From the NCBI GenBank assembly GCA_964576525.1, contig CAZNVH010000015.1:39883-103882 (forward strand): a stretch of DNA of 64,000 nt, read 5' to 3'. Of this stretch, positions 51,687 through 64,000 are shown in pieces. The position numbers were made by a program, and so were the translations under genes. The DNA is from an uncultured Enterobacteriaceae bacterium (GTDB taxonomy: Bacteria; Pseudomonadota; Gammaproteobacteria; Burkholderiales; SG8-39). Within the stretch, counting starts at the first letter, position 1. Each line of letters starts with the position of its first letter. The notes beneath the pieces were generated by a model. The model made no database searches and was not told where the DNA came from. It saw only the letters and a list, made by a program, of their open reading frames with translations.

Positions 51687-52802
51687 ATGCAATCGCTCCG
51701 GATCTACGACGAGCTCACCGCCGCACGCACGCGCTTCCTGCGCGTCGACGAGCTATGCCGCCGCGCGGCGGAAAAGAGCGCGCTCCCTGCCGCTGACGCG
51801 CTGGCGGCGGAAGCGCGCCTGCCGCTGAAGGAAAAGAAGGGGCTGGAGAAGGCGCAGGGCGAGTTCCTCGCCGAGATCCTCGGCAACCCGGTGGCCGGCA
51901 CCCACCTGTGCCACGCCATGCTTCTCCCCCGGGAGGAAGCCAAAAAGCAATTGCCGGAATATCAAAAGCGCGGAGAAGCGACGTTCACCGGCGCGCACCT
52001 CAAGCGCCACGGCAAGGCCTCAGTGCTCACTATGAGCAACCCGCGCTACCTGAACGCCGAGGACGAGTCGACGCTCGACGGCATGGAGATCGCGGTCGAC
52101 CTGGCGCTGCTCGACCCGCGCACCGAGGTCTGCGTGCTGCGCGGCGACACCGTGACGCACCCCAAGTACGCCGGCAAGCGGCTGTTCGGCGCCGGCATCA
52201 ACCTCACGCATCTGTACGAGGGAAAGATCCGCTACCTCTGGTACCTGATCCGGGATCTGGGCTTCGTCAACAAGTTCTACCGGGGGCTGGCGTCGCCGGA
52301 CCAGTCGCCGGAAATTTCCTCCACCGAGAAGCTGTGGATCGCCGCGGTCGAGGGCTTCGCCATCGGCGGCCATTGCCAGGTGCTGCTCACCATGGACTAC
52401 ACCCTCGCCGCCGAGGATGCCTACCTCACCCTGCCGGCGCGCAAGGAAGGCATCGTGCCGGGCGCGGCCAACCTGCGCCTGCCGCGCTTCGTCGGCGACC
52501 GCATCGCGCGCCAGGCGATCCTCGCCGAGCGGCGCATCGACTGCGCGAGCCCCGAGGGCAGGATGATTTGTGATGAGGTGGTGCCTTCGAACCGAATGGA
52601 CGACGCGGTCGCGGCAACGGTTGAAAAGCTCACCTCGTCGGGGGTGGTGAGCGCCGCGGGCAACCGGCGCGCGTTCCGCGCCGGCGAGGAGCCGCTCGAC
52701 ACCTTCCGGCGCTATATGGCGGTCTACGCCCGGGAGCAGGCATACTGCCACTTCAGCCCGGCGCTGGTCGCCAACCTAGAACGGAACTGGAAGAAAAAAT
52801 GA
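51687..52802 (+). CDS. Crotonase-fold (enoyl-CoA hydratase/isomerase family) protein, DpgC-like length and N-terminal extension
   Basis: 371 aa with the crotonase core FGAGINLTHL...AAVEGFAIGGHCQVLLTMDYTLA. No finer assignment is possible by eye. Confidence 0.55.
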   Translation: MQSLRIYDELTAARTRFLRVDELCRRAAEKSALPAADALAAEARLPLKEKKGLEKAQGEFLAEILGNPVAGTHLCHAMLLPREEAKKQLPEYQKRGEATFTGAHLKRHGKASVLTMSNPRYLNAEDESTLDGMEIAVDLALLDPRTEVCVLRGDTVTHPKYAGKRLFGAGINLTHLYEGKIRYLWYLIRDLGFVNKFYRGLASPDQSPEISSTEKLWIAAVEGFAIGGHCQVLLTMDYTLAAEDAYLTLPARKEGIVPGAANLRLPRFVGDRIARQAILAERRIDCASPEGRMICDEVVPSNRMDDAVAATVEKLTSSGVVSAAGNRRAFRAGEEPLDTFRRYMAVYAREQAYCHFSPALVANLERNWKKK

Positions 52803-53248
52803 AAATCCTGGTCCTGCACGGCCCCAACCTGAACCTGTTCGGGCGGCGCGAGCCGCACATCTACGGCTCGACCACGCTCGCGCAGATCAACCAGAAGCTG
52901 CAGAAGCTGGCGAAGGAGCTCGGGGCGAAGCTGGCGGTGATCCAGTCCAACCACGAGGGCGAGCTGCTCGACTTCCTCCACAAGCACATGGATAGCGCCG
53001 ACGGCGCCATCCTCAACCCCGGCGGCCTGACGCAGCACGGCGTGTCGCTGCACGACTGCATCAAGGCCATGCCGTTCCCGGTGATCGAGCTGCACATGTC
53101 GAACCTCGCGACGCGCGAGCAGTGGCGCACCCACTCGATCATCTCGTCCGCCGTAAAGGGGACGGTGCAGGGCTTCGGCTGGCGCTCCTACCTTGCGGCG
53201 CTGCGCCTCGCGACCGAGCTCGCCGGAGAGGCGAAGAAAAAAAGCTAG
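52799..53248 (+). CDS. aroQ: Type II 3-dehydroquinate dehydratase
   Basis: MKILVLHGPNLNLFGRREPHIYG...QSNHEGELLD...ILNPGGLTQHGVSLHD...ELHMSNL, canonical AroQ motifs. Confidence 0.93.
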   Translation: MKILVLHGPNLNLFGRREPHIYGSTTLAQINQKLQKLAKELGAKLAVIQSNHEGELLDFLHKHMDSADGAILNPGGLTQHGVSLHDCIKAMPFPVIELHMSNLATREQWRTHSIISSAVKGTVQGFGWRSYLAALRLATELAGEAKKKS

Positions 53249-53254
53249 GCTCTG

Positions 53255-55150
53255 ATGGACGTCATCACCATCGGGCGCTGCTCGGTCGATCTCTACGGCC
53301 AGCAGATCGGTTCGCGCCTCGAGGACATCGCCACCTTCGCCAAGTCGGTCGGCGGCTCGCCGGCCAACATGGCGATCGGCACCGCCCGCCTGGGATTGAA
53401 GTCGGGCCTCATCACCCGCGTCGGCGACGAGCAGATGGGGCGCTTCGTCCTCGAGCAGATGCGCCGCGAAGGCGTGGCGGTCGAGGGCATCAAGGTCGAC
53501 CCGCAGCGGCTCACCGCGCTGGTGCTGCTGGCGGTCGAGGACGAAGGCGTGTCGCCGACGATCTTCTACCGCACCGATTGCGCCGACATGGCGCTCGGCG
53601 AAGAGGACATCGACGAGGCCTACATCGCCTCCGCCGGCGCGATCGTCGTCACCGGCACCCATTTCTCGCGCCCGAACAGCGACGCCGCGCAGCGCAAGGC
53701 GATCCGCATCGCCAAAAAGAACGGGCGCAAAGTCGCTTTCGACATCGACTACCGGCCGACCCTGTGGGGCCTGACGGGCCACGCCGCGGGCTTCGAGCGC
53801 TATGTGAAGTCAGATCAGGTTTCTCAAAAAATAAAAACAATTCTGGTCGACTGCGACTTGATCGTCGGCACCGAGGAGGAAATCCGCATCGCCGCCGGCG
53901 TGGACGACGTGCTCGGCGCGCTAAAGGCGATCCGCGCGCTATCGAGAGCGACGATCGTGCTCAAGCGCGGCCCCATGGGCTGCATCGTCTACGACGGCGC
54001 GATCACCGAGCTCGAGGATGGGATCGTCGGCAAGGGCTTTCCGATCGAGGTCTACAACGTGCTGGGCGCCGGGGATGCCTTCATGTCGGGGTTCCTGCGC
54101 GGCTGGCTGAAGGGCGAGCCGCTGGCGACCGCCGCCACCTGGGCGAACGCCTGCGGGGCTTTCGCGGTGTCGCGGCTGCTCTGCTCGCCCGAATACCCGA
54201 CCTGGGCTGAGCTCAGCCACTTCCTCAAGCACGGCAGCGCGCAGCGCGCGCTGCGCAAGGACGCGGCAATCAACCACGTGCACTGGGCGACGACGCGGCG
54301 CCCGCAGCCGGACACGTTGATGGCGCTGGCGATCGATCATCGCGCGCAGCTCGAGGCGATCGCGGACCGGCACGGTGTGGCGCGCAGCCGCATCGACGAA
54401 TTCAAGGTGCTGGCGGTCGACGCCGCGCTGCGGGTGGCCAAGGGCCGGCCGGGATTCGGCATGCTGCTCGACTCGACCTACGGCCAGAAAGCGCTGTACC
54501 GCGCGGCCAAGCATGGGTTGTGGATAGGCCGGCCGGTCGAGAAACCCGGCTCTCGCCCACTGGACTTGGAGCAGCACCATCTGGCGGAATGGCCGATCAC
54601 TCACACGGTGAAATGCCTTTGCTTCTATCACCCCGACGACGACGCGGAGCTGAAATCGCGCCAGGAGCGCGAGCTGGCACGTGTCTACGACGCCGCACGC
54701 ACCGCCGGCCGCGAGCTCCTCATCGAGATCATCGCCGGCAAGCACGGGCCGCTCGCCGACACCACGGTCGCTGCGGTGCTCGCCCGGCTCTACGCGCTCG
54801 GCATCAAGCCGGACTGGTGGAAGCTCGAGCCGCAGAAGAGTCCCGCCGCCTGGCGGGCGATCGCGCAGGTGATCGCCGCCAACGATCCCTATTGCCGCGG
54901 CATCGTCCTGCTCGGGCTGGAGGCGCCGGAGGCCGAGCTCGCCGCCGCCTTCCGCGCCGCCGCGGCGAGCCCGCTGGTCAAGGGGTTCGCCGTGGGCCGC
55001 ACGATCTTTGCCGATGCCGCGGACCAGTGGTTATCCGGCAAAATGACGGACGAGGAAGCCGTGGCGGATATGGCGGCCAGGTTCGAGAGCCTCGTTTCGG
55101 TATGGAAAGAGACCCAACATGTCCAAACTCCACGTAAAACCGCGCGCTGA
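53255..55150 (+). CDS. iolC: Bifunctional 5-dehydro-2-deoxygluconokinase (IolC) / DUF2090 aldolase-like domain
   Basis: 631 aa with a PfkB kinase N-terminal half (GGSPANMAIG..., NVLGAGDAFMSGFL) and a DUF2090-type C-terminal half (DWWKLEP). Confidence 0.8.
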   Translation: MDVITIGRCSVDLYGQQIGSRLEDIATFAKSVGGSPANMAIGTARLGLKSGLITRVGDEQMGRFVLEQMRREGVAVEGIKVDPQRLTALVLLAVEDEGVSPTIFYRTDCADMALGEEDIDEAYIASAGAIVVTGTHFSRPNSDAAQRKAIRIAKKNGRKVAFDIDYRPTLWGLTGHAAGFERYVKSDQVSQKIKTILVDCDLIVGTEEEIRIAAGVDDVLGALKAIRALSRATIVLKRGPMGCIVYDGAITELEDGIVGKGFPIEVYNVLGAGDAFMSGFLRGWLKGEPLATAATWANACGAFAVSRLLCSPEYPTWAELSHFLKHGSAQRALRKDAAINHVHWATTRRPQPDTLMALAIDHRAQLEAIADRHGVARSRIDEFKVLAVDAALRVAKGRPGFGMLLDSTYGQKALYRAAKHGLWIGRPVEKPGSRPLDLEQHHLAEWPITHTVKCLCFYHPDDDAELKSRQERELARVYDAARTAGRELLIEIIAGKHGPLADTTVAAVLARLYALGIKPDWWKLEPQKSPAAWRAIAQVIAANDPYCRGIVLLGLEAPEAELAAAFRAAAASPLVKGFAVGRTIFADAADQWLSGKMTDEEAVADMAARFESLVSVWKETQHVQTPRKTAR

Positions 55151-55916
55151 GCGCGGCAAGGTCATCAGCATCACGCCCGAGAGCGCCGGCTGGAAGCATG
55201 TCGGCTTCGACGTGCACAAGCTCGCCGTGGGCGAAAGCGCGGCCGCCAGGACCGGCGAGCGCGAGGTCTGCCTGGTGCTGGTCTCGGGCAAGGCCAGGGT
55301 CAAGGCGGGCGGCAAGGACTTCGGCGTCCTCGGCGAGCGCATGACGCCGTTCGCGGGCAAGCCGCATGCGGTCTATGTCCCCGGCGGCAGCGACTGGCGC
55401 GCCGAGGCGGCGACCGAGGTCACCCTGGCGGTCTGCTCGGCGCCGTCGACCGGCGGCAAGCTTGCGGCGCGGCACATCGCGCCGCAGGACATGGGACAGG
55501 AAACGCGCGGCAAGGGAACCAACGTGCGCTACGTCACCAACATCCTCCCGGAAAACGCGCCGGCGGACTCGCTCCTGGTCGTCGAGGTGCTCACGCCCGG
55601 GGGGCATACGTCGAGCTACCCGCCGCACAAGCACGACCAGGACAATCTGCCGGCCGAATCCTTCCTGGAAGAGACTTACTACCACCGCCTCAATCCGCCG
55701 CAGGGCTTCGCCTTCCAGCGCGTCTACACCGACGATCGTTCGCTCGACGAGGCGATCGTGGTCGAGGACGGCAGCGTGGTCATGGTGCCCGAGGGCTATC
55801 ACCCCGTGGCGGCCATCCACGGCTACGACCTCTACTATCTCAATGTCATGGCCGGCCCGCGGCGCACGTGGAAATTCCACAACGCGCCCGAGCACGAATG
55901 GCTGATGAAGCCCTGA
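55119..55916 (+). CDS. iolB: 5-deoxy-glucuronate isomerase
   Basis: 265 aa with GGHTSSYPPHKHD and YYLNVMAGP..W, matching IolB. It overlaps the iolC 3' end by 32 nt. Confidence 0.85.
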   Translation: MSKLHVKPRAERGKVISITPESAGWKHVGFDVHKLAVGESAAARTGEREVCLVLVSGKARVKAGGKDFGVLGERMTPFAGKPHAVYVPGGSDWRAEAATEVTLAVCSAPSTGGKLAARHIAPQDMGQETRGKGTNVRYVTNILPENAPADSLLVVEVLTPGGHTSSYPPHKHDQDNLPAESFLEETYYHRLNPPQGFAFQRVYTDDRSLDEAIVVEDGSVVMVPEGYHPVAAIHGYDLYYLNVMAGPRRTWKFHNAPEHEWLMKP

Positions 55917-55932
55917 TCTCCGAGAACCCGCT

Positions 55933-56886
55933 TTACTCGGGCTGGATGCCGGCTTCCTTGACGATCCGGCCCCACTTGTCGACCTCGATGCGGATCACCT
56001 CGGCGAATGCCTCCGGCGTGCCGCCCTGGATCTCGATGCCGGCGCCCATCAGGCGCGCGCGCACGTCCTCGAGCTTGAGTGCGGCGTTCATCGCGGCGTT
56101 CAGCTTCGCCACCGCGTCTTTCGGCATCCCCGCCGGCCCGAGGATCCCGCCCCAGGTGCTGGCGTCGTAGCCGGGAAGACTTTCGGCGATCGTCGGCAGC
56201 TCGGGCATTGCGCTCGAGCGCTTGGCGGTGGTGACCGCGATCCCGCGCACCGTGCCCGCTTTCACGTGGCCGCGGATCGCGGTGATGGTGTCGAAGATCA
56301 TCGCGGTGCGGCCGGCCAGCAAGTCGGGGTGCGCAGCGGAGCTGCCCTTGTAGGGGACGTGCTGCATCTTGGTCCCGGTCATGCTCATGAACAGCTCGGC
56401 CGCCATGTGCAGCGAGCTGCCCGGCCCGCTCGAGGCGTAGACCGCCTTGCTTGGATTCGCCTTGATCCAGGCCACGAGTTCGGGAACGGTTTTCGCCTGA
56501 ACCGACGGGTGTACCGCGAGGAGCAGCGGCACGACGTGCGTGTAGACCACCGGCTCGAAATCCTTGATCGGGTCGAAGGGCATCTGCTTGAACAGATGCT
56601 TGTTGGTCGCGTGGCTGGAAGCGACGATGACCAGCGTGTAGCCGTCGGGCGGGCTCTTGGCGACGAAATCGGTGCCGAGGTTGTTGGAGGCGCCCGGCTT
56701 GTTCTCGACCACCACCGGCTGCCCGAGCGCCGGGGTCAGCTTTTCGGCGAGGCTGCGCGCGATCAGGTCGATCGCGCCGCCCGGCGTCGCCGGGACCACG
56801 ATCTTGATCGAGCGGCTTGGCCAGGTTTGCGCGCTTGCCTGTTGCAGGCCGAAAAGCACGACTGCGATTGCTATCAACACCCTCAT
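55933..56886 (-). CDS. Tripartite tricarboxylate transporter substrate-binding protein (Bug/TctC family)
   Basis: 317 aa with WPSRSIKIVVPATPGGAIDL, VVVENKPGASNN and HVPYKGSSAA. Confidence 0.85.
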   Translation of the reverse strand: MRVLIAIAVVLFGLQQASAQTWPSRSIKIVVPATPGGAIDLIARSLAEKLTPALGQPVVVENKPGASNNLGTDFVAKSPPDGYTLVIVASSHATNKHLFKQMPFDPIKDFEPVVYTHVVPLLLAVHPSVQAKTVPELVAWIKANPSKAVYASSGPGSSLHMAAELFMSMTGTKMQHVPYKGSSAAHPDLLAGRTAMIFDTITAIRGHVKAGTVRGIAVTTAKRSSAMPELPTIAESLPGYDASTWGGILGPAGMPKDAVAKLNAAMNAALKLEDVRARLMGAGIEIQGGTPEAFAEVIRIEVDKWGRIVKEAGIQPE

Positions 56887-57082
56887 TTCGTTCCCCTTGA
56901 GTTGTTTTCCAGTGTCCGAGGCGAATTCTGCGCTAAGTGCATGATCTTCTTGCTTGACAGACCTTTACCCCCGGTCCTTAATGATCCTGCTAAGGTATTG
57001 AAGTAGCTACTGCTTCTACAAACGTACCCGGCTGCAGATCGTAGCCGGGACCAACAACAAACAGCAGGACCGCGGGGGAAAG

Positions 57083-58492
57083 ATGAGTGGCGGGTTGGCC
57101 ACAATTTCGGGCGGCCGGCGACCAGCCGGCTCCGTCATCGCGGCGGGGATCGTGCTCGAGTTGCACGCGGCCGTGCTCTCGCAAGAGGGCCTGGCGCAGT
57201 CTGCCACCGCCCTCGCCACCGAACTGGCGAAGGCGCTGCGCTGCGACCGGGTTACCGTGGGGTGGCTCGAGCGCGGCAGCTGCCGCGTCATCGCGACCTC
57301 GCACAGCGTCGAGTTCGACGCGCGCCACAAGCTGTTCGAGAAGATCGGCGCGGCCATGGACGAGGCGATCGAGCAGTCGGCCACGATCGTGCTGCCGGCG
57401 CCGGAGCCTTCCGGCCCGTTCGTAACGCTCGCCCACGGCGAAGTGCTCGCCTTGCTGGGCGGCAGTGTCTGCACCGTTCCCCTGGTCGATGCCGGACGCC
57501 CGGTCGGCGTCATCACGCTGGAGCGTGCTGGCAGCGCGTTCGGCCTGACGGAAGCGGCGTTTTGCGAGGACGTAGCCTGCCTCGCCGGACCGCTGCTCGA
57601 GATGAAGCGCAGGGGCCAGCGATCGCCGGCGCAGGTCGCGCTCGACGCGTGGCGCGAGTCGGCCTCCCGGCTCACCGGCCGGGGCCGCGCGGGCAAATGG
57701 GTGGGCCTGGGGATCGCCGCGATCGCGGCTGTCGCCCTGCTGGTTCCGGTTTCCCATCACGTAGGCGCGCCGGCCCGCCTCGAGGGCTCCATCCAGCGCA
57801 TCGTAGCGGCGCCGGTCGACGGCTTTCTCGAGCAGGTCAACGTGCGTCCCGGCGACCGGGTCCGCGCCGGCGACGTCATCGCCGAGCTGTCCCTGCGCGA
57901 CCTGCAGGCGGAGCGCGCCAAGCGCCAAAGCGAAGTCACGCAGCAGGAGAACCTCTACGGGGCGGCGATGGCCCGCGCCGACCGGACGCAATTCGTCATC
58001 CACCACGCGAAGGCAGCCGAGGCGCTCGCGCAGCTGGCGCTGGTCGAGCACCAGATGCAGCGCGCGCGCATCCGCGCGCCGTTCGACGGCGTGGTGATCA
58101 AGGGCGATCTGACGCAGTCGCTGGGCGCCCCGGTGCAGCGCGGCGAAGTCCTGATGACGCTGGCGCCGGACGAGCGCTTCCGCCTGATCGTGGAAGTCGA
58201 CGAGCGCGACCTGGCGCAGGTGCAGCCCGGATCGCGCGGCCGGCTGGCGCTGGCGGCGGCGCCGGGAGAGACGTTCGAGTTCCGCGTGAGCCGCATCCTG
58301 CCGGTGGCGGTGGCGGCCGACGGCCGGAATTTCTTCGAAGTGGAAGCGGTGGTCGAAACGGCGAGCGCTACGCTGCGCCCGGGGCTGCGCGGCGTCGCCA
58401 AGATCTCCGCCGGCGAGCGTTCGTTGGTTTGGATCGCGACGCATCGCGCCGTGGAATGGGTGCGCCTCGCGATCTGGTCGCTCGGCGCCTAG
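57083..58492 (+). CDS. GAF-domain / HlyD-family membrane-fusion (periplasmic adaptor) protein
   Basis: 469 aa. The N-terminal 170 or so aa are GAF-like (CDRVTVGWLERGSCRVIATSHS...VCTVPLVDAGRPVGVITLER). Then come one TM helix (WVGLGIAAIAAVALLV), a biotinyl-lipoyl-like hairpin (VAAPVDGFLEQVNVRPGDRVRAGDVIAEL ... IRAPFDGVVI) and a coiled coil. Confidence 0.75.
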   Translation: MSGGLATISGGRRPAGSVIAAGIVLELHAAVLSQEGLAQSATALATELAKALRCDRVTVGWLERGSCRVIATSHSVEFDARHKLFEKIGAAMDEAIEQSATIVLPAPEPSGPFVTLAHGEVLALLGGSVCTVPLVDAGRPVGVITLERAGSAFGLTEAAFCEDVACLAGPLLEMKRRGQRSPAQVALDAWRESASRLTGRGRAGKWVGLGIAAIAAVALLVPVSHHVGAPARLEGSIQRIVAAPVDGFLEQVNVRPGDRVRAGDVIAELSLRDLQAERAKRQSEVTQQENLYGAAMARADRTQFVIHHAKAAEALAQLALVEHQMQRARIRAPFDGVVIKGDLTQSLGAPVQRGEVLMTLAPDERFRLIVEVDERDLAQVQPGSRGRLALAAAPGETFEFRVSRILPVAVAADGRNFFEVEAVVETASATLRPGLRGVAKISAGERSLVWIATHRAVEWVRLAIWSLGA

Positions 58493-60631
58493 GTGGCCGA
58501 GTCTCTCTTCAGCCCGTTCTGGTACCGCGTGAGCGAGCTGCATCCGCGGCTGCGGGCCGGGGTGAAAGCGCAGCGGCAGATCTACCGCGGCGAGACCTGG
58601 TATCTGCTGGTCGACGGCGCGAGCGGGCGGCAGCAGCGCATCAACCGCTCGGCCTACGAGCTGATCGGGCGCTTCGACGGCCGCGCCTCGGTCAACCGGG
58701 TGTGGACGCTGCTGCTGGAAAAATTCGGCGACGACGCCCCGACGCAGGACGAAGTGGTGCGCATCCTGTCGCGGCTGAGCGAGAGCGAGGTGGTGCAGTT
58801 TGAGTCCGCACCGGACATCGCGGGGCTGTTCCGCCGGCGCGCGGAGCGTTCCCGCCGCCGCGCGTGGGTGAACCCGCTCGCCTTCTCCATGCCGCTGTTC
58901 GACCCTTCGCGCCTGCTCGATCGCCTCGAGCCGGCGCTGCGCCGGCTGCTGCATCCCCTCGCGTTCGCGTTCTGGGTGGCTGCGGTGCTGCTGGCGGCGG
59001 CTGTGGCCGCCGCGCACTGGGGCGCGCTGCAAGCCCATGCGACGAAATACATGGCGACGGCGTACTACCTCACGCTCGCCTGGATCTGCTACCCGCTCAT
59101 CAAGGGCCTGCACGAGCTCGCGCACGGCATCGCCGTGCGGCGATGGGGCGGTGAAGTTCACGAAATGGGCGTGACCCTGTTTTTCTTCACCCCCGCGCCT
59201 TATGTCGACGCCTCGGCGGCGAACGCATTTCGCGACCGCAGGCAGCGGGCGGCGGTCAGCGCGGCGGGGATCGTGGTCGAGCTCGGCCTCGCCGCAGTGG
59301 CGCTGTTCCTCTGGCTCGCCATCGAGCCCGGGCTGCTGAGCGACCTCGCGTTCGTGACGCTGTTCCTGTGCGCCGCCTCGTCGTTCCTTTTCAACGCCAA
59401 CCCGCTGCTGCGCTTCGACGGCTATCACGTGCTGTGCGACCTGCTCGAGCTGCCGAACCTCGCGATCCGCAGCCGGGCCTACTGGATGCATCTTGCGCTG
59501 CGGCTGCTCGGCGGCGCGGCGCAGGCGTCGGCGCCGGTGATCACGCGCGGCGAGCGCAAGTGGCTGCTGCTCTACCTGCCGGCGTCGCTCGCCTATCGCC
59601 TTGCCCTGGGCCTTGGCCTGGTCCTCTGGCTCGGAGCCAAGTCGCAATGGCTGGGCTGGCTGGCTGCGGCTCTGTTCCTGGCTTACATGGTGGCCCTCCC
59701 GGCCTGGAGCGCGGTTCGCTCGCTCCTCGGTTCGCTGCCGCCGGGACGTCCGCGACGGCGTGCGGCGCTGGTCCTCGCGCCGGCAAGCCTCGGCGTGCTC
59801 GCGTTGCTCCCCATCGTGCCGTTTCCCAGCATGCTGGTCGTGCAGGGAGTGGTGTGGCCCCCCGAGCAGGCGCAGGTCAGGGCGGAAACCGAAGGCTTTG
59901 TCCTGAAGGTTCTTGCGCGCGACGGCGACCTCGTCCAGCCCGGGACGCCGCTGGTGGAGCTGGCCGAGCCGACGCTGCGCGCCGAGCACGAAGCGCTGCG
60001 CTGGCGAGTGCAAGGGCTGCAGGCGCAGCAATACCGCCTGCTGCTGAGCGACCCGGCGCAGGCGAAGAACGCGATCGAGGAGCTGGGCCGCGCGCAGACC
60101 GAGCTGGAGCGCGTCGAGGAGCGCGTCGGTCACCTGACCGTGCGCAGCAAGGCCACCGGCCGGCTGATCCTGCCGCACAGCGAGGACCTCCCCGGGTCGT
60201 TTGCGCAGAAAGGCAAGACGCTGGGCTACGTTCTGACCTCGGCGCCCATGGCCGTGCGCGCCGTCGTTCCGAACGAGAGCGCCCCGCGGATCCGCGGGGC
60301 GAACCGGGGCGTCGAAGTCTTCCTGCCGGGGCGGGAATCGCCGACGCCGGCGCGGCTGGAGCGCGAGGTGCCGGCGGCCGGGAACGTGCTCCCCAGCGCG
60401 GCGCTGGGCGAGCGCGGCGGCGGCCAGCATGCCACCGATCCCGCCGACAAGGACGGCACACGCACGGTGGGGCCGGTATTCGTTTTCGACGTCGTGCTGG
60501 AAGGCGAGGCGTCGCAGAGCGTCGGGCAGCGCGCCTGGGTGCGCTTCGAGCTCGAGCACGAGCCGCTGGCCGCGCAGTGGTACCGGCACCTGCGCCAGCT
60601 CCTGCTCAGGCATTTCAATCCCGCGGCATGA
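58493..60631 (+). CDS. Site-2-protease (M50)-like polytopic metalloprotease fused to a C-terminal HlyD-like adaptor region
   Basis: 712 aa with a GTG start abutting the upstream TAG. HELAH is at 59111-59125 and NANPLLRFDG (S2P NxxPxxxxDG motif) at 59393-59422. It has multiple TM helices, and the C-terminal half has a lipoyl-like hairpin plus coiled coil (VRAETEGFVLKVLARDGDLVQPGTPLVEL..LQAQQYRLL). Confidence 0.75.
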   Translation: MAESLFSPFWYRVSELHPRLRAGVKAQRQIYRGETWYLLVDGASGRQQRINRSAYELIGRFDGRASVNRVWTLLLEKFGDDAPTQDEVVRILSRLSESEVVQFESAPDIAGLFRRRAERSRRRAWVNPLAFSMPLFDPSRLLDRLEPALRRLLHPLAFAFWVAAVLLAAAVAAAHWGALQAHATKYMATAYYLTLAWICYPLIKGLHELAHGIAVRRWGGEVHEMGVTLFFFTPAPYVDASAANAFRDRRQRAAVSAAGIVVELGLAAVALFLWLAIEPGLLSDLAFVTLFLCAASSFLFNANPLLRFDGYHVLCDLLELPNLAIRSRAYWMHLALRLLGGAAQASAPVITRGERKWLLLYLPASLAYRLALGLGLVLWLGAKSQWLGWLAAALFLAYMVALPAWSAVRSLLGSLPPGRPRRRAALVLAPASLGVLALLPIVPFPSMLVVQGVVWPPEQAQVRAETEGFVLKVLARDGDLVQPGTPLVELAEPTLRAEHEALRWRVQGLQAQQYRLLLSDPAQAKNAIEELGRAQTELERVEERVGHLTVRSKATGRLILPHSEDLPGSFAQKGKTLGYVLTSAPMAVRAVVPNESAPRIRGANRGVEVFLPGRESPTPARLEREVPAAGNVLPSAALGERGGGQHATDPADKDGTRTVGPVFVFDVVLEGEASQSVGQRAWVRFELEHEPLAAQWYRHLRQLLLRHFNPAA

Positions 60632-62589
60632 ACCTGCGACCGGCCGACCTTCCCATCCCCGGCGTGCTCTGGGGTCGCTATCCCGAGCGGCGCTGGAACG
60701 GCCCGGGGTGGCTCGCGGGCTGGGGAGCGATGTTTGCCGGTCGCGCGCCGCGCGACGCTGCTTTCCTGCGCGCGGTCGAAGCGCTGCAGCCTGCGATGCT
60801 GCAGCTGTCCTTGGAGCAATGCGCCGCCGAAGCGCACAGGCTGCGCCAGCAGCTCGCGCGCCGCGGAATGGCGCAGGATCTGGTGGCGGCGGTATTCGCC
60901 CTGTTCTCCGAAATCTCGCGCCGCCAGACCGGCCGGCGCCCGTACGGCACGCAGATGGTCGCGGCGCGCGCCATGCTCGGCCGTCGCCTGGTGGAGATGG
61001 CGACCGGCGAAGGCAAGACGCTGGCCGCCGCGCTGGCCGCAGCGACCGCGGCGCTCGCGCGGATCCCCGTCCACGTCATCACCGCCAACGAGTATCTCGC
61101 CCGGCGCGATGCCGACGCCCTGCGGCCGCTCTTCGGCGCGCTCGGGCTGCAGGTCGGCGTGGTGACGCATGCGCTCGATCGGGAGGCGCGCCGGGCCGCT
61201 TACCGCTGCGACGTGACCTATTGCACGGCGAAGGAGCTGGTCTTCGATTACCTGCGCGACCGCCTCCTGCGTCCCGACGTCGACGGAGATTTGCGTAGCC
61301 GGGCCTATCGGCTGGCGACCCGGGACGCCGGCGGGGGCACGTTGCTGCGCGGGCTGTGCATGGCGATCGTCGACGAAGCCGACAGCGTGCTGATCGACGA
61401 GGCGAGCGTGCCGTTCGTCCTGTCACGCGCGGGGGAGAGCCGCGGCAACCGCGAGCATTGGGCGCACGCCCTCGAGCTCGCGCGCGGCTTCGCGTCCCGC
61501 GAAGACTTCACCGTCGATCCGGAATCGAAGGCGGTGGAGCTCACGGCTGACGGGCGCGCCAGGGCCGAGTCCCAGCCGGCGCATGCCGATCCGCTGTGGC
61601 GCGTCCGGCGCTACCGGGAAGAGGCCTTGTGCCTGGCGCTGGCCGCGATCCATCTCTATCACCGCGACCGGCACTACCTGGTGCGCGACGGCACCGTGCA
61701 GATCATCGACGATACCAGCGGGCGGGTGGCCGCCGGCCGCGCCTGGTCCCGCGGCCTGCACCAGCTGATCGAGCTCAAGGAAGGCTGCCGGCCGAGCGCC
61801 GAGTTCACTCCTGCCGCGCAGATCACCTACCAGCGCTTCTTTGCGCGCTACCTCCATCTCTGCGGCATGAGCGGCACGCTGCTCGAAGGGCGCTCGGAGC
61901 TGCGCTCGGTCTACGGTGCGCCCGTGGTCCGGATCCCGCTGCGCAAGCCCTCGCGCCGGGCGGTCCTGCCGACGCGCGCGTTCGGCACCCATGAGGCGCG
62001 CTGGCGATACGTCGTGCGGCGCACGAGTGAACTTCACGCGCGGGGCGGCGCGGTGCTCATCGGCACCGACTCGGTGGCCGATTCGCAGTCTCTCTCCCAG
62101 AGCCTGGGCGCCGCGGGCATCGCGCACGTCGTGCTCAACGCGCGGCAGGACCGGCACGAGGCGCACGTCATCGCCACGGCCGGCCAGCCCGGCCGCGTCA
62201 CCGTGGCCACCAGCATGGCGGGCCGGGGCACCGACATCGAGCTCGCGGATGACGTTGCCCGGGACGGCGGGCTGCACGTGATGCTTTGCCAGGCGAATGC
62301 CTCGCGACGGGTGGACCACCAGTTCACCGGCCGCTGCGCGCGGCGCGCCGAGCCGGGAAGCTGCGAGACGCTGCTGTCGCTCGAGTCGGCGCCGGTCCTC
62401 GCGGTCCTGCCGGCGTGGATCAGCCGCTGGGCCGCTCGCGCGGAGGAAATACGCCCGCGCTGGGCCGGGATTACGCTCGCGCGCGCTGCTTTGTGGTGGG
62501 AAGAGCGCAGACGCCGCTGGCAGCGCGCCCAGCTGCGCCTGCAGGACGAGGCCCTCGAGCGCCAACCGATGCTAGGCTCAGGCAGATGA
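60628..62589 (+). CDS. SecA-like DEAD-motor ATPase, truncated (no C-terminal scaffold/wing/zinc domain)
   Basis: 653 aa from MNLRPADLPIPG. Walker A is MATGEGKT (60997-61020), followed by IVDEADSVLIDEASVPF (DEAD at 61372-61383), QITYQRFFARYLHLCGMSGT, ATSMAGRGTDIEL and GGLHVM..ASRRVDHQFTGRCARRAEPGS. These are colinear with SecA NBD1/PPXD/NBD2. ATGA overlaps on both sides. Confidence 0.8.
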   Translation: MNLRPADLPIPGVLWGRYPERRWNGPGWLAGWGAMFAGRAPRDAAFLRAVEALQPAMLQLSLEQCAAEAHRLRQQLARRGMAQDLVAAVFALFSEISRRQTGRRPYGTQMVAARAMLGRRLVEMATGEGKTLAAALAAATAALARIPVHVITANEYLARRDADALRPLFGALGLQVGVVTHALDREARRAAYRCDVTYCTAKELVFDYLRDRLLRPDVDGDLRSRAYRLATRDAGGGTLLRGLCMAIVDEADSVLIDEASVPFVLSRAGESRGNREHWAHALELARGFASREDFTVDPESKAVELTADGRARAESQPAHADPLWRVRRYREEALCLALAAIHLYHRDRHYLVRDGTVQIIDDTSGRVAAGRAWSRGLHQLIELKEGCRPSAEFTPAAQITYQRFFARYLHLCGMSGTLLEGRSELRSVYGAPVVRIPLRKPSRRAVLPTRAFGTHEARWRYVVRRTSELHARGGAVLIGTDSVADSQSLSQSLGAAGIAHVVLNARQDRHEAHVIATAGQPGRVTVATSMAGRGTDIELADDVARDGGLHVMLCQANASRRVDHQFTGRCARRAEPGSCETLLSLESAPVLAVLPAWISRWAARAEEIRPRWAGITLARAALWWEERRRRWQRAQLRLQDEALERQPMLGSGR

Positions 62590-63431
62590 ACCGGCCCGCC
62601 ATGATGAAGACCTGCGTGGCAGCGCTCCTCGGCGCCGCGAGCTGTTGGGACGCGGGCGCGCAGCCGCTCGGGTGCCTGATCGAGCCGTTTCGCGTGACCG
62701 AGGTCGGCAGCCCGGTCATCGGCGTGCTCGAGTCGGTCAAGGTCGAGCGCGGCGATCGCATCGCCAAAGGGGCCGTCATCGCCGTGCTGCGCGCCGACGT
62801 GGAGCGGGCGGCGGTCGGGGTCGCGTCCACCCGGGCAAAGGTGGTCGCGGAGGTCCAGGCGGCGCAGGCGAACCACGAGCTGGCACGCCAGAAGCTGACG
62901 CGCGCCCGGGAGCTCAGGCGCCAGAACTTCATTTCCGAGCAGGCGCTGGAGCAGGCGCGCGCGGAGGCCGACGTGGCCGAACAGAGGCTGAAGCAGACGC
63001 AGGAGCAGCGCGGCATCTGGGCGCGCGAGCTGCAGCTCGCCGAAGCGCAGCTCGAGCTGCGCACCATCCGCAGCCCGGCCGACGGCATCGTTGTGGAGCG
63101 CTACATGTCGGGCGGCGAGCGGGTGGAGGAAAAGCCGATCGTGCGCATCGCGACGATCGATCCGCTGCGGGTGGAGATCGTCGTTCCCGCGGCGCAGTAC
63201 GGCACGATTTCGCTCGGCGCCGTGCTCACCGTCACCCCCGATCTGCCGCACGCGAAGCCCCTGCGGGCGAAAGTCGTCCTGGTCGATCCGGTGGTCGACG
63301 GCCCGAGCAATACGTTCCGGGTCCGGCTCGAGCTGCCGAACCCGAACTACGAGCTGCCGGCCGGCGTACGCTGCAAAATCGGCCTCGGTTTCGACGCCAA
63401 GGTCGCCGCCGAGCGCAACCTCAAGCGATGA
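62586..63431 (+). CDS. HlyD/RND-type periplasmic adaptor, probable lipoprotein
   Basis: 281 aa from MNRPAMMKTCVAALLGAASC (lipobox-like), with a lipoyl hairpin (VGSPVIGVLESVKVERGDRIAKGAVIAVL ... IRSPADGIVV), a coiled coil and a beta-barrel. Confidence 0.8.
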   Translation: MNRPAMMKTCVAALLGAASCWDAGAQPLGCLIEPFRVTEVGSPVIGVLESVKVERGDRIAKGAVIAVLRADVERAAVGVASTRAKVVAEVQAAQANHELARQKLTRARELRRQNFISEQALEQARAEADVAEQRLKQTQEQRGIWARELQLAEAQLELRTIRSPADGIVVERYMSGGERVEEKPIVRIATIDPLRVEIVVPAAQYGTISLGAVLTVTPDLPHAKPLRAKVVLVDPVVDGPSNTFRVRLELPNPNYELPAGVRCKIGLGFDAKVAAERNLKR

Positions 63432-64000
63432 TGCGCCGGCGCCCGATCGTAGAAGCGCTCGAGCCGCGGCTGCTGTACTCGGCCGACAGTGCGGCGCTGG
63501 CCGCGGCGGTCCTGGGGCCGCCCGCGACGGAGCAGCGCGTCATCGACGGCGATGCCGAGTTCGCGCCCCAGACCGAGCAGGCGGTGCAGAACGCCTCGCG
63601 CGAAGTCGTGTTCATCGATGGCCGCACACCCGACTACGAGCTTCTGGTCCAGGACATCGCCGCGCAGAGCGGACGGCAGGTCGACGTCGTCATGCTCGAT
63701 ACCACGCGTGACGGGCTGGAGCAGATCACCGAAGCGCTCGCGGGCCGGGAGAACGTCGCCGCGCTGCACATCATCGCCCACGGCGACGAGGGCGTTGTGC
63801 AGCTGGGCAACGCCCTGGTCACGGCCGACAGCCTTCAGAACAATCAATACCGGATCGAAGCCTGGAGCAAGGCGCTCACCGCCGACGCCGACATCCTCCT
63901 CTACGGCTGCGACGTCGCGGCGAGCGTGCAGGGACAACTGTTCGTCGACGCGCTCGCGCGCCTTACCGGGGCCGACGTCTCCGCCTCGGACGATGCGACC
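63428..64000 (+). CDS. N-terminus of a LEPR-XLL / DUF4347 domain protein (probable giant secreted adhesin-like protein); runs off right edge
   Basis: Not in the ORF track because it has no stop in-window. Hand translation from ATG 63428 gives MMRRRPIVEALEPRLLYSADSAALAAA...REVVFIDGRTPDYELLVQDI...VVMLDTTRDGLEQITEALAGRENVAALHIIAHGDEGVVQLG...ILLYGCDVAAS..GQLFVDALARLTGADVSASDDAT, which fits the DUF4347 pattern. The listed ORF 63091..63711 is in the wrong frame. Confidence 0.8.
   Translation, partial: MMRRRPIVEALEPRLLYSADSAALAAAVLGPPATEQRVIDGDAEFAPQTEQAVQNASREVVFIDGRTPDYELLVQDIAAQSGRQVDVVMLDTTRDGLEQITEALAGRENVAALHIIAHGDEGVVQLGNALVTADSLQNNQYRIEAWSKALTADADILLYGCDVAASVQGQLFVDALARLTGADVSASDDAT

Follow-up and report, generated by a model that had tools for sequence, protein, structure and literature searches.

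What is the task of a protein that appears to combine an intramembrane protease, half of a periplasmic export adaptor and a peptide-binding domain in a single chain? Such a protein is encoded at positions 58493 to 60631 (stop codon included) of a 64,000-nucleotide stretch of contig CAZNVH010000015.1 (GenBank assembly GCA_964576525.1), from an uncultured bacterium that GTDB places in the Burkholderiales. This whole stretch, which has about 70% G+C across its 64 kb, is called the window below, and the operon discussed here, with its domains and motifs, lies on its plus strand. The gene starts with GTG, and its 712-residue product, the fusion protease, consists of a PqqD-like RRE domain (the recognition element of ribosomally synthesized and posttranslationally modified peptides, or RiPPs), a site-2-protease (S2P)-like core, and a membrane fusion protein (MFP) half. 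We propose, with a probability of about 0.6, that this protein is the central inner-membrane part of a dedicated envelope-spanning machine for the export and processing of large proteins that carry an N-terminal LEPR-XLL leader.

A preliminary description of the gene, made by reading the DNA without database searches, had located two S2P motifs. Both are intact at the positions where it had placed them: HELAH, the zinc-binding and catalytic motif (residues 207 to 211, with H207, E208, and H211), at 59111 to 59125, and NANPLLRFDG, the second motif (residues 301 to 310, with D309 as the presumed third zinc ligand), at 59393 to 59422. Residues H207, E208, H211, N301, N303, P304, L305, and D309 are invariant across three alignments (A1, 72 sequences; A3, 33 sequences; A4, 36 sequences). 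Because the catalytic residues are invariant in every alignment, the protease is very probably active.

The two motifs belong to a seven-transmembrane (TM) S2P-like core (residues ~153 to 446; 58949 to 59830), which was delimited by hydropathy, the helices of an AlphaFold2 (AF2) model, the NCBIfam daptide_HExxH model, and Foldseek. The daptide_HExxH model (NF041824) matches residues 18 to 405 over model positions 1 to 367 of 379 (E = 3.6e−51), with a score of 174.5 bits that is under the equivalog cut-off of 300. The YydH/LiaK model (NF058609; E = 2.9e−7, 30.4 bits, cut-off 225) and Pfam Peptidase_M50 (PF02163; E = 4.1e−5, 23.5 bits, under the gathering score of 27.2) match as well. Among 36 diverse family members, each scanned singly, Pfam matches were obtained for HlyD_3 in 29, Peptidase_M50 in 28, HlyD_D23 in 20, and PqqD in 15; the 28 Peptidase_M50 matches (E ≤ 1e−3) suggest that the family is related to M50 proteases but divergent. 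A sequence profile of the TM core had no match among all PDB sequences at E ≤ 10, solved S2Ps included. The fold of the core was compared by means of a separate AF2 model of residues 125 to 450 (pLDDT 86.8, pTM 0.83). Its top Foldseek match is the S2P of Methanocaldococcus jannaschii (3b4r_A; probability 1.00, a weak E value of 1.3e−2, TMt 0.46), and all other matches have probabilities of 0.16 or less. The modeled core is laid out as in an S2P, with the HExxH helix (190 to 217), a membrane-re-entrant β-hairpin (225 to 238), two helices, and the NxNPLLRFDG loop, in which NANPLLRFDG stands at the end of helix 281 to 301. The M50-type profile matches and the invariant motifs bear out the S2P active site that had been read from the letters, and the weak 3b4r fold match is in line with it.

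Hydropathy assigns the TM segments to residues 153 to 176, 190 to 214, 255 to 278, 282 to 306, 357 to 381, 386 to 410, and 424 to 446, and HELAH lies within the predicted 28-residue TM helix 190 to 217, in agreement with the hydrophobic setting reported earlier. Arginine-rich loops precede TM1, TM3, and TM7 (residues 111 to 125, 245 to 253, and 412 to 423, respectively). From these loops, the positive-inside rule predicts that the RRE domain faces the cytoplasm and the MFP half the periplasm, and that the zinc site is within the membrane near its cytoplasmic face.

The MFP half (residues ~447 to 712; 59831 to 60628) contains lipoyl-like half-motifs, an α-hairpin (helices 493 to 519 and 521 to 546), and a β-barrel. 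HlyD_3 scores 28.4 bits, over its gathering score of 22.2, and HlyD_D23 matches too. Foldseek aligns this half with MexA (1vf7, E = 1.8e−12) and also with AcrA, MacA, and EmrA (E values from 1e−12 to 1e−9), and a family profile matches MacA and MexA in the PDB. The HlyD-like character of the C-terminal half, which the preliminary description had derived from its hairpin organization, is thereby confirmed. With relationships to both M50 and HlyD found, and with the HExxH motif held in a predicted TM helix, its view of the protein as an intramembrane protease joined to an export adaptor stands.

What had been offered as a mere impression, a PqqD/RRE-like domain at the N terminus, is also supported. 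The domain (residues ~18 to 102; 58544 to 58798) is matched by Pfam PqqD (E = 3.9e−4, 21.1 bits, just under the gathering score of 23.4) and by TIGR03859 (E = 2.4e−4, 20.9 bits, cut-off 46), and 3g2b, a solved PqqD structure, is matched by a profile built from 72 homologues (E = 2.6e−5). The AF2 model has the RRE topology of a three-stranded sheet followed by three helices in a winged helix-turn-helix (strands 24 to 31, 34 to 41, and 47 to 50; helices 52 to 58, 67 to 81, and 85 to 97), and PqqD is, as stated above, detected in 15 of the 36 family members.

The fusion of these three modules is far beyond chance, because thousands of full-length homologues exist. A word-indexed protein search returned 2,968 matches, the best 120 of which are 699 to 735 residues long and cover 97 to 100% of the query. 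An exhaustive search of 50%-identity representatives yielded 3,398 clusters at E ≤ 1e−30, with nearly all of the top 150 about 715 residues long, and a scan of one genome per species yielded 455 relatives. The 80 relatives that were retrieved from these 455 come from Beta-, Gamma-, and Deltaproteobacteria, Nitrospirota, Omnitrophota, Myxococcota, and other groups. Cultured carriers are found in Neptuniibacter and Ramlibacter, and the nearest relatives of the window are metagenome-assembled Burkholderiales. Far from being peculiar to this locus, the fusion belongs to an old and very large family that already exists in the databases. Database names of the relatives are generic ("putative peptide zinc metalloprotease protein," "site-2 protease family protein," and "efflux RND transporter periplasmic adaptor subunit"). 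The full-length AF2 model of the fusion protease has a pLDDT of 83.6, and the protein scores 33 against TIGR01843, with a cut-off of 209. On the opposite strand, a 1,207-residue open reading frame (ORF) at 56990 to 60613 was rejected as a shadow ORF of high-GC DNA, since the homology lies entirely on the plus strand.

The fusion protease gene is the second gene of a translationally coupled five-gene operon, in which stop and start codons abut or overlap (58492/58493, 60628 to 60631, 62586 to 62589, and 63428 to 63431). Gene 1 (57083 to 58492), whose stop codon abuts the start of the fusion protease gene, encodes a 469-residue GAF-MFP protein with a cytoplasmic GAF domain (Pfam GAF, E = 5e−8), one TM helix, and a periplasmic MFP part (HlyD_D23, E = 2.7e−20; HlyD_3, E = 1.4e−19; TIGR01730 RND_mfp, 97.6 bits, over the cut-off of 94.9). 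No match to its GAF region was found among PDB sequences. Gene 4 (62586 to 63431), joined to gene 3 by an ATGA overlap, encodes a 281-residue MFP with an N-terminal signal sequence, the third adaptor paralogue of the operon (TIGR01730 RND_mfp, 128.8 bits, over the cut-off of 94.9; HlyD_D23, E = 1e−17). A seemingly conserved cysteine after this signal peptide ("CLIEP") was dropped as a candidate feature: it is glycine in many relatives, and the segment resembles an ordinary first MFP strand.

Between the two, gene 3 (60628 to 62589) overlaps the fusion protease gene through another ATGA and encodes a 653-residue SecA-like ATPase (SecA_DEAD, E = 4e−82; SecA_PP_bind, E = 2e−23; P-loop_SecA, E = 1e−36). 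This protein keeps the Walker A motif (GEGKT), the DEAD box (VDEAD), both nucleotide-binding domains (NBD1 and NBD2), and the preprotein cross-linking domain, and it has no helical wing, two-helix finger, or C-terminal tail. Its alignment to Bacillus subtilis SecA is limited to residues ~31 to 530, and its own tail appears to resemble the start of the scaffold helix. The NCBIfam SecA score is 453 bits (cut-off 814), and all NCBIfam SecA and SecA2 scores are under their cut-offs. The corresponding SecA paralogues of the window and of related loci L003 to L082 are about 630 to 690 residues long, all end after the first scaffold helix, and have in common a "G-x-Y-P-E-(R/K)" motif at the N terminus, which is missing from canonical SecA.

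We call the first four genes of the operon the cassette. None of the four proteins of the cassette is covered by a specific model in NCBIfam release 20. The literature that we searched contains no description of the combination of an RRE-S2P-MFP protein, a SecA-like protein, and a LEPR-XLL protein, and we also found no curated family for it. The fusion protease is thus a combination of S2P, MFP, and RRE modules in an uncharacterized but catalogued family. The window operon contains neither a type I secretion system (T1SS)-type ABC transporter gene nor a TolC-family gene; a TolC-type partner could have its gene elsewhere. RiPP precursors and modification enzymes are absent from the window operon and from the annotated related loci, and scans of 56.5 to 64 kb of the window with Rfam and for promoters and terminators gave nothing credible, an upstream riboswitch included.

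Gene 5 (63428 to 64000), whose start codon overlaps the stop codon of the third MFP gene, is cut by the end of the window. Its product, the presumed cargo, begins MMRRRPIVEALEPRLLYSAD and continues into a DUF4347 domain (E = 2e−42). The core of the N-terminal LEPR-XLL signal, LEPRLLYSAD, lies at 63458 to 63487 after the basic stretch MMRRRPIVEA, and the NCBIfam LEPR-XLL model NF012209 scores 26.4 bits against a cut-off of 17; this model is also over its cut-off in orthologues and other cargo proteins. The preliminary description had pointed to a downstream LEPR-XLL protein as a possible substrate. The protein exists, but its gene is located three genes downstream of the fusion protease gene and is not the immediate neighbor.

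If the five genes form one system, does their order persist elsewhere? We compared the window proteins with 81 non-redundant loci by tblastn and counted those loci whose flanks were sufficient. The GAF-MFP gene lies directly upstream of the protease gene in 71 of 73 loci, the SecA-like gene directly downstream of it in 67 of 70, and a third MFP gene downstream on the same strand in 51 of 59. The gene order of the cassette is conserved across many phyla. TolC-family genes adjoin the cassette in three loci, all on the minus strand (L033, 5845 to 7233; L046, 15157 to 16548; L062, 15093 to 16457). A scan for ABC ATPase motifs in the 1.26 Mb of flanks of the 81 loci found two, one of them an importer's and neither T1SS-like. 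As further observations on these loci, the SecA-like gene is split or degraded in L002, a separate, canonical-looking SecA is encoded 6 kb away in L053, and genes of the SapC family recur (L046, 6680 to 7477, by Pfam; L021, L037, and L056, by similar N termini).

The presumed cargo recurs as well. In the orthologous contig L083 (92% identical), the cargo has 1,456 residues, with DUF4347 and cadherin-like and tandem-95 repeats. At least 22 loci encode, just after the third MFP gene or divergently upstream, a protein whose basic N terminus is followed by (phi)x(phi)EELEPRxL(F/Y/L)SA(D/G), and further variants of the signal are LEELEAQVLYSAD and LEAVEPRLLFSAG. Some cargo proteins without DUF4347 keep the signal; for example, a protein of 4,187 residues with DUF7948, SBBP, and cadherin domains starts with "...VVEPRILYSAD." About 20 further loci contain an ORF, between 700 and more than 2,600 residues long, that enters from the upstream edge and ends a few hundred bases before the GAF-MFP gene; the N termini of several of these giant ORFs are not readable owing to frameshifts or locus ends. 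In the reverse direction, starting from a LEPR-DUF4347 protein on a 529-kb contig (L087), the whole cassette was found immediately upstream. In another reverse look-up (L089), the LEPR protein lies at the contig end, and a protein search that started from the cargo returned short fragments only. The large cadherin-type proteins beside the cassette have a LEPR-XLL start wherever their N termini can be read. Cadherin and tandem-95 repeats are present in complete cargo proteins, and no RTX or T1SS C-terminal domains were detected in four of these. The LEPR-XLL tag is annotated by NCBI and is mentioned just in passing in the literature searched. The DUF4347 domains of the cargo (window, 63428 to 64000; proteins P0277, P0318, and P0326) keep "H(I/V)(I/V)xHG" and "LLYGC(D/N)VA," a histidine and cysteine pair that, we presume, recalls the clan CD (caspase/CHAT-like) cysteine peptidases; the DUF4347 region had no match among PDB sequences.

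One residue of the RRE domain, compared between the window and 24 loci, varies with the cargo signal. W36, in the second RRE strand (codon 58598 to 58600), is tryptophan in all 17 loci with a canonical signal and serine or glycine in 6 of 8 loci with variant signals, and serine or glycine occurs only beside variant leaders (…SAG or LEAQVLYSAD). The association has a hypergeometric P of ~1.6e−4, which is uncorrected for phylogeny and comes from only about three independent lineages. The change could reflect co-variation of a reader domain with its leader and, as indirect support for RRE-leader pairing, is suggestive only.

Cleavage coupled to export, with the LEPR-XLL protein as the substrate, had been suggested in the preliminary description. 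This suggestion is strengthened because the gene order is kept in about 80 loci of many phyla and because giant LEPR-XLL proteins are recurrent neighbors, and such coupling may well take place. We hypothesize that the cytoplasmic RRE domain captures the basic/LEPRxLxSAD N terminus of the cargo, in the manner in which RREs capture the leader peptides of RiPPs. The SecA-like ATPase, with its DEAD motor and preprotein clamp and without the SecY-docking parts, would then drive the unfolded chain into the membrane complex, and the protease near the cytoplasmic face would remove the leader during or after threading, in analogy with the M50 enzyme EpeP/YydH and with the peptidase domain found in ABC exporters of bacteriocins. 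The three MFP paralogues may form a mixed periplasmic tube that leads to a TolC-family outer-membrane channel, and the GAF domain may gate the machine on a small-molecule or second-messenger signal. M50 proteases are known to remove RiPP leaders, as in EpeP/YydH, TglG, and TmoG (PMC10885120; PMC7026026), and EpeP is regarded as combining cleavage of its peptide with export (PMC10885120). Because the proposed signal of the cargo is N-terminal, secretion could start before the huge protein is fully translated, which a T1SS with its C-terminal signal cannot do.

Signal-transduction genes accompany several of these loci. A hybrid PAS-HisKA-REC-Hpt kinase with a REC-nucleotide cyclase or a REC-GGDEF-EAL protein is encoded after the cargo gene in L083 (19306 to 22142; a hybrid histidine kinase and then a REC-nucleotide-cyclase protein), L001 (16040 to 19617), and L087 (15276 to 19527), and HD, GGDEF-EAL, and cNMP-binding genes stand beside the system in L002 (3618 to 7642) and L086 (6121 to 7977). 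Because of these neighbors and the GAF domain on the first MFP, there are hints that the system may be under second-messenger control.

How does this arrangement relate to known systems? By homology, the fusion protease is closest to the RRE-plus-M50 leader peptidases of the daptide and epipeptide pathways, of which it is a homologue and not a member. The homology to the daptide protease (NF041824) and to YydH/EpeP/LiaK (NF058609) is clear over residues 18 to 405, that is, the RRE-like region plus the HExxH core. Those proteases take the leaders off ribosomal peptides at the membrane. They have no MFP half, and in their Gram-positive hosts they act on small peptides alongside modification enzymes and ABC exporters. 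In diderm bacteria, by contrast, the fusion protease is accompanied by MFPs, a SecA paralogue, and proteins that range from 1,000 to more than 4,000 residues. Canonical S2Ps (3b4r, RseP, and SpoIVFB) share with it the HExxH motif in a TM helix, the re-entrant β-hairpin, and NxxPxxxxDG two helices later. Unlike them, the fusion protease is very divergent, has no PDZ or CBS domain and no sigma-factor context, and carries RRE and MFP modules.

The C-terminal ~265 residues share the lipoyl/α-hairpin/β-barrel fold with HlyD of T1SS and with MexA, AcrA, MacA, and EmrA. However, HlyD-type adaptors are anchored by one TM helix, whereas the anchor here is a seven-TM protease, and there are three MFP paralogues. 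The large, repeat-rich surface cargo is like that of T1SS adhesins, and in some loci TolC-family genes are adjacent. In contrast to T1SS and tripartite pumps, the cassette has no ABC, RND, or MFS partner, and the proposed targeting element lies at the N terminus of the cargo and not at its C terminus; the system lacks the ABC partner and the C-terminal signal by which a T1SS is defined. Accessory SecA2 systems likewise have a second SecA paralogue, which here is dedicated by gene context to large surface proteins, but the cassette paralogue ends after the first scaffold helix and has no SecY2 or Asp partners. Peptidase-containing ABC transporters (PCATs) consist of a C39 peptidase fused to a bacteriocin exporter and couple leader removal to the export of an N-terminally tagged substrate. 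Their logic of a leader-removing protease fused to an export component is the same, which makes them functionally the most similar system, but the parts are entirely different: the fusion protease is a zinc M50 enzyme and not a cysteine C39 peptidase, the ATPase is a separate SecA-like protein and not an ABC transporter, the substrates are giant proteins and not peptides, and there is no sequence relationship. Short of even odds, we tentatively go further and suggest that the cassette represents a class of double-membrane protein secretion systems that has not been described before. In such a system, the RRE domain, taken over from the pathways of peptide natural products, would recognize the N-terminal LEPR-XLL leader of giant adhesin-like proteins, a truncated SecA paralogue would take the place of an ABC transporter as the energy source, the S2P-MFP protein would serve as inner-membrane platform and leader peptidase, and the three MFPs would dock to TolC.

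Several observations weigh against a machine of this kind. S2Ps usually cut transmembrane or membrane-associated segments, and the LEPR-XLL region is not hydrophobic; besides the S2P domain, there is no obvious inner-membrane channel. The Pfam M50 and PqqD scores of the fusion protease are below the gathering thresholds, and the S2P fold match is weak in its E value (1.3e−2). The SecA-like gene is missing from three otherwise intact loci (L001, L016, and L035), the first of which (L001, 12136 to 13002) is a 74%-identical syntenic orthologue in the same genomic neighborhood as the window; the SecA-like motor may be dispensable, replaceable, or supplied in trans. In most loci, the N terminus of the neighboring giant ORF lies beyond the fetched DNA, and one reverse look-up from a LEPR gene (L088) found no cassette within 10 kb upstream. 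Finally, a giant LEPR-XLL protein of Vibrio is reported to have C-terminal RTX/serralysin domains as well (PMC10868602), and the N-terminal LEPR tag may sometimes coexist with classical T1SS export in some family members.

This last point bears on the most serious alternative, in which the system is a tether-and-release device: the adhesin would be exported by other means, for example by a T1SS encoded elsewhere, and held at the envelope by its N terminus until the S2P cuts it on a signal from the GAF-MFP protein, functionally like the control of LapA by LapG and LapD. The fusion of a GAF domain to the partner MFP, the signal-transduction genes that follow the cargo in L001, L083, and L087 and flank the system in L002 and L086, the RTX domains of the Vibrio protein, and the fact that the SecA-like gene can be absent are all consistent with such a device. 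We nevertheless regard it as unlikely, given that T1SS C-terminal domains were not detected in any complete cargo protein examined, that no T1SS ABC gene was found at the 81 loci, and that a SecA-type translocation motor is kept in 67 of 70 loci. The active site is, moreover, predicted at the cytoplasmic face, so that the N terminus of the cargo would have to stay in the cytoplasm.

The best curated matches of the fusion protease being RiPP proteases (daptide_HExxH, E = 3.6e−51; YydH/LiaK, E = 2.9e−7), it could also act in the manner of EpeP/YydH or of the daptide protease, as leader peptidase and exporter for a small peptide that is modified, and the LEPR-XLL protein would then be no more than a neighbor. 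The presence of a PqqD-like RRE domain and the M50 enzymes known from epipeptide and pearlin pathways fit this explanation, yet the scores are far under the equivalog cut-offs (174.5 against 300 and 30.4 against 225), the overlapping genes of the operon leave no room for a precursor gene, and neither the operon nor the examined loci contain a radical-SAM enzyme, a cyclodehydratase, another modification enzyme, or an ABC exporter. Since the conserved neighbors are instead a SecA paralogue, MFPs, and giant proteins, we consider a small-peptide pathway quite improbable. We give still less credence to an ordinary tripartite efflux component, or an S2P that cleaves a regulator such as an anti-sigma factor, with the giant proteins uninvolved. 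Such roles are suggested by relatives named "efflux RND transporter periplasmic adaptor subunit" and "site-2 protease family protein" and by MFP folds typical of efflux pumps, but the conserved cassette comes without an RND, MFS, or ABC pump gene or a sigma/anti-sigma pair, neither the RRE domain nor the SecA paralogue has a part to play in systems of this type, and the conserved LEPR-XLL adjacency would be left unexplained.

Directly upstream of the operon, at 51687 to 56886, the window encodes an enoyl-CoA hydratase-like protein, a type II dehydroquinase, a PfkB kinase fused to DUF2090, and a KduI/IolB-like isomerase, followed by a divergent periplasmic binding protein that by eye is of the Bug/TctC type. 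Neighbors from this region recur in the orthologous contigs L001 and L083. Because these contigs share the upstream neighbors, the cassette occupies a stable position in the chromosome and is not carried by a mobile element.

If the fusion protease is indeed the center of an export-and-processing machine for LEPR-XLL proteins, familiar parts would be joined in an unfamiliar combination, by which the largest surface proteins would be exported in thousands of environmental diderm bacteria as well as in some cultured ones (for example, Neptuniibacter, Ramlibacter, and Methylomicrobium-type genomes). The question is open to direct testing on a single five-gene operon, a single short peptide motif, and a pair of catalytic residues. 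The LEPR-XLL tag would be assigned a function, and RRE-type leader recognition would extend from small peptides to proteins of thousands of residues. A SecA motor would be at work outside the SecYEG context, and site-2 proteases would gain a role as leader peptidases of secretion.

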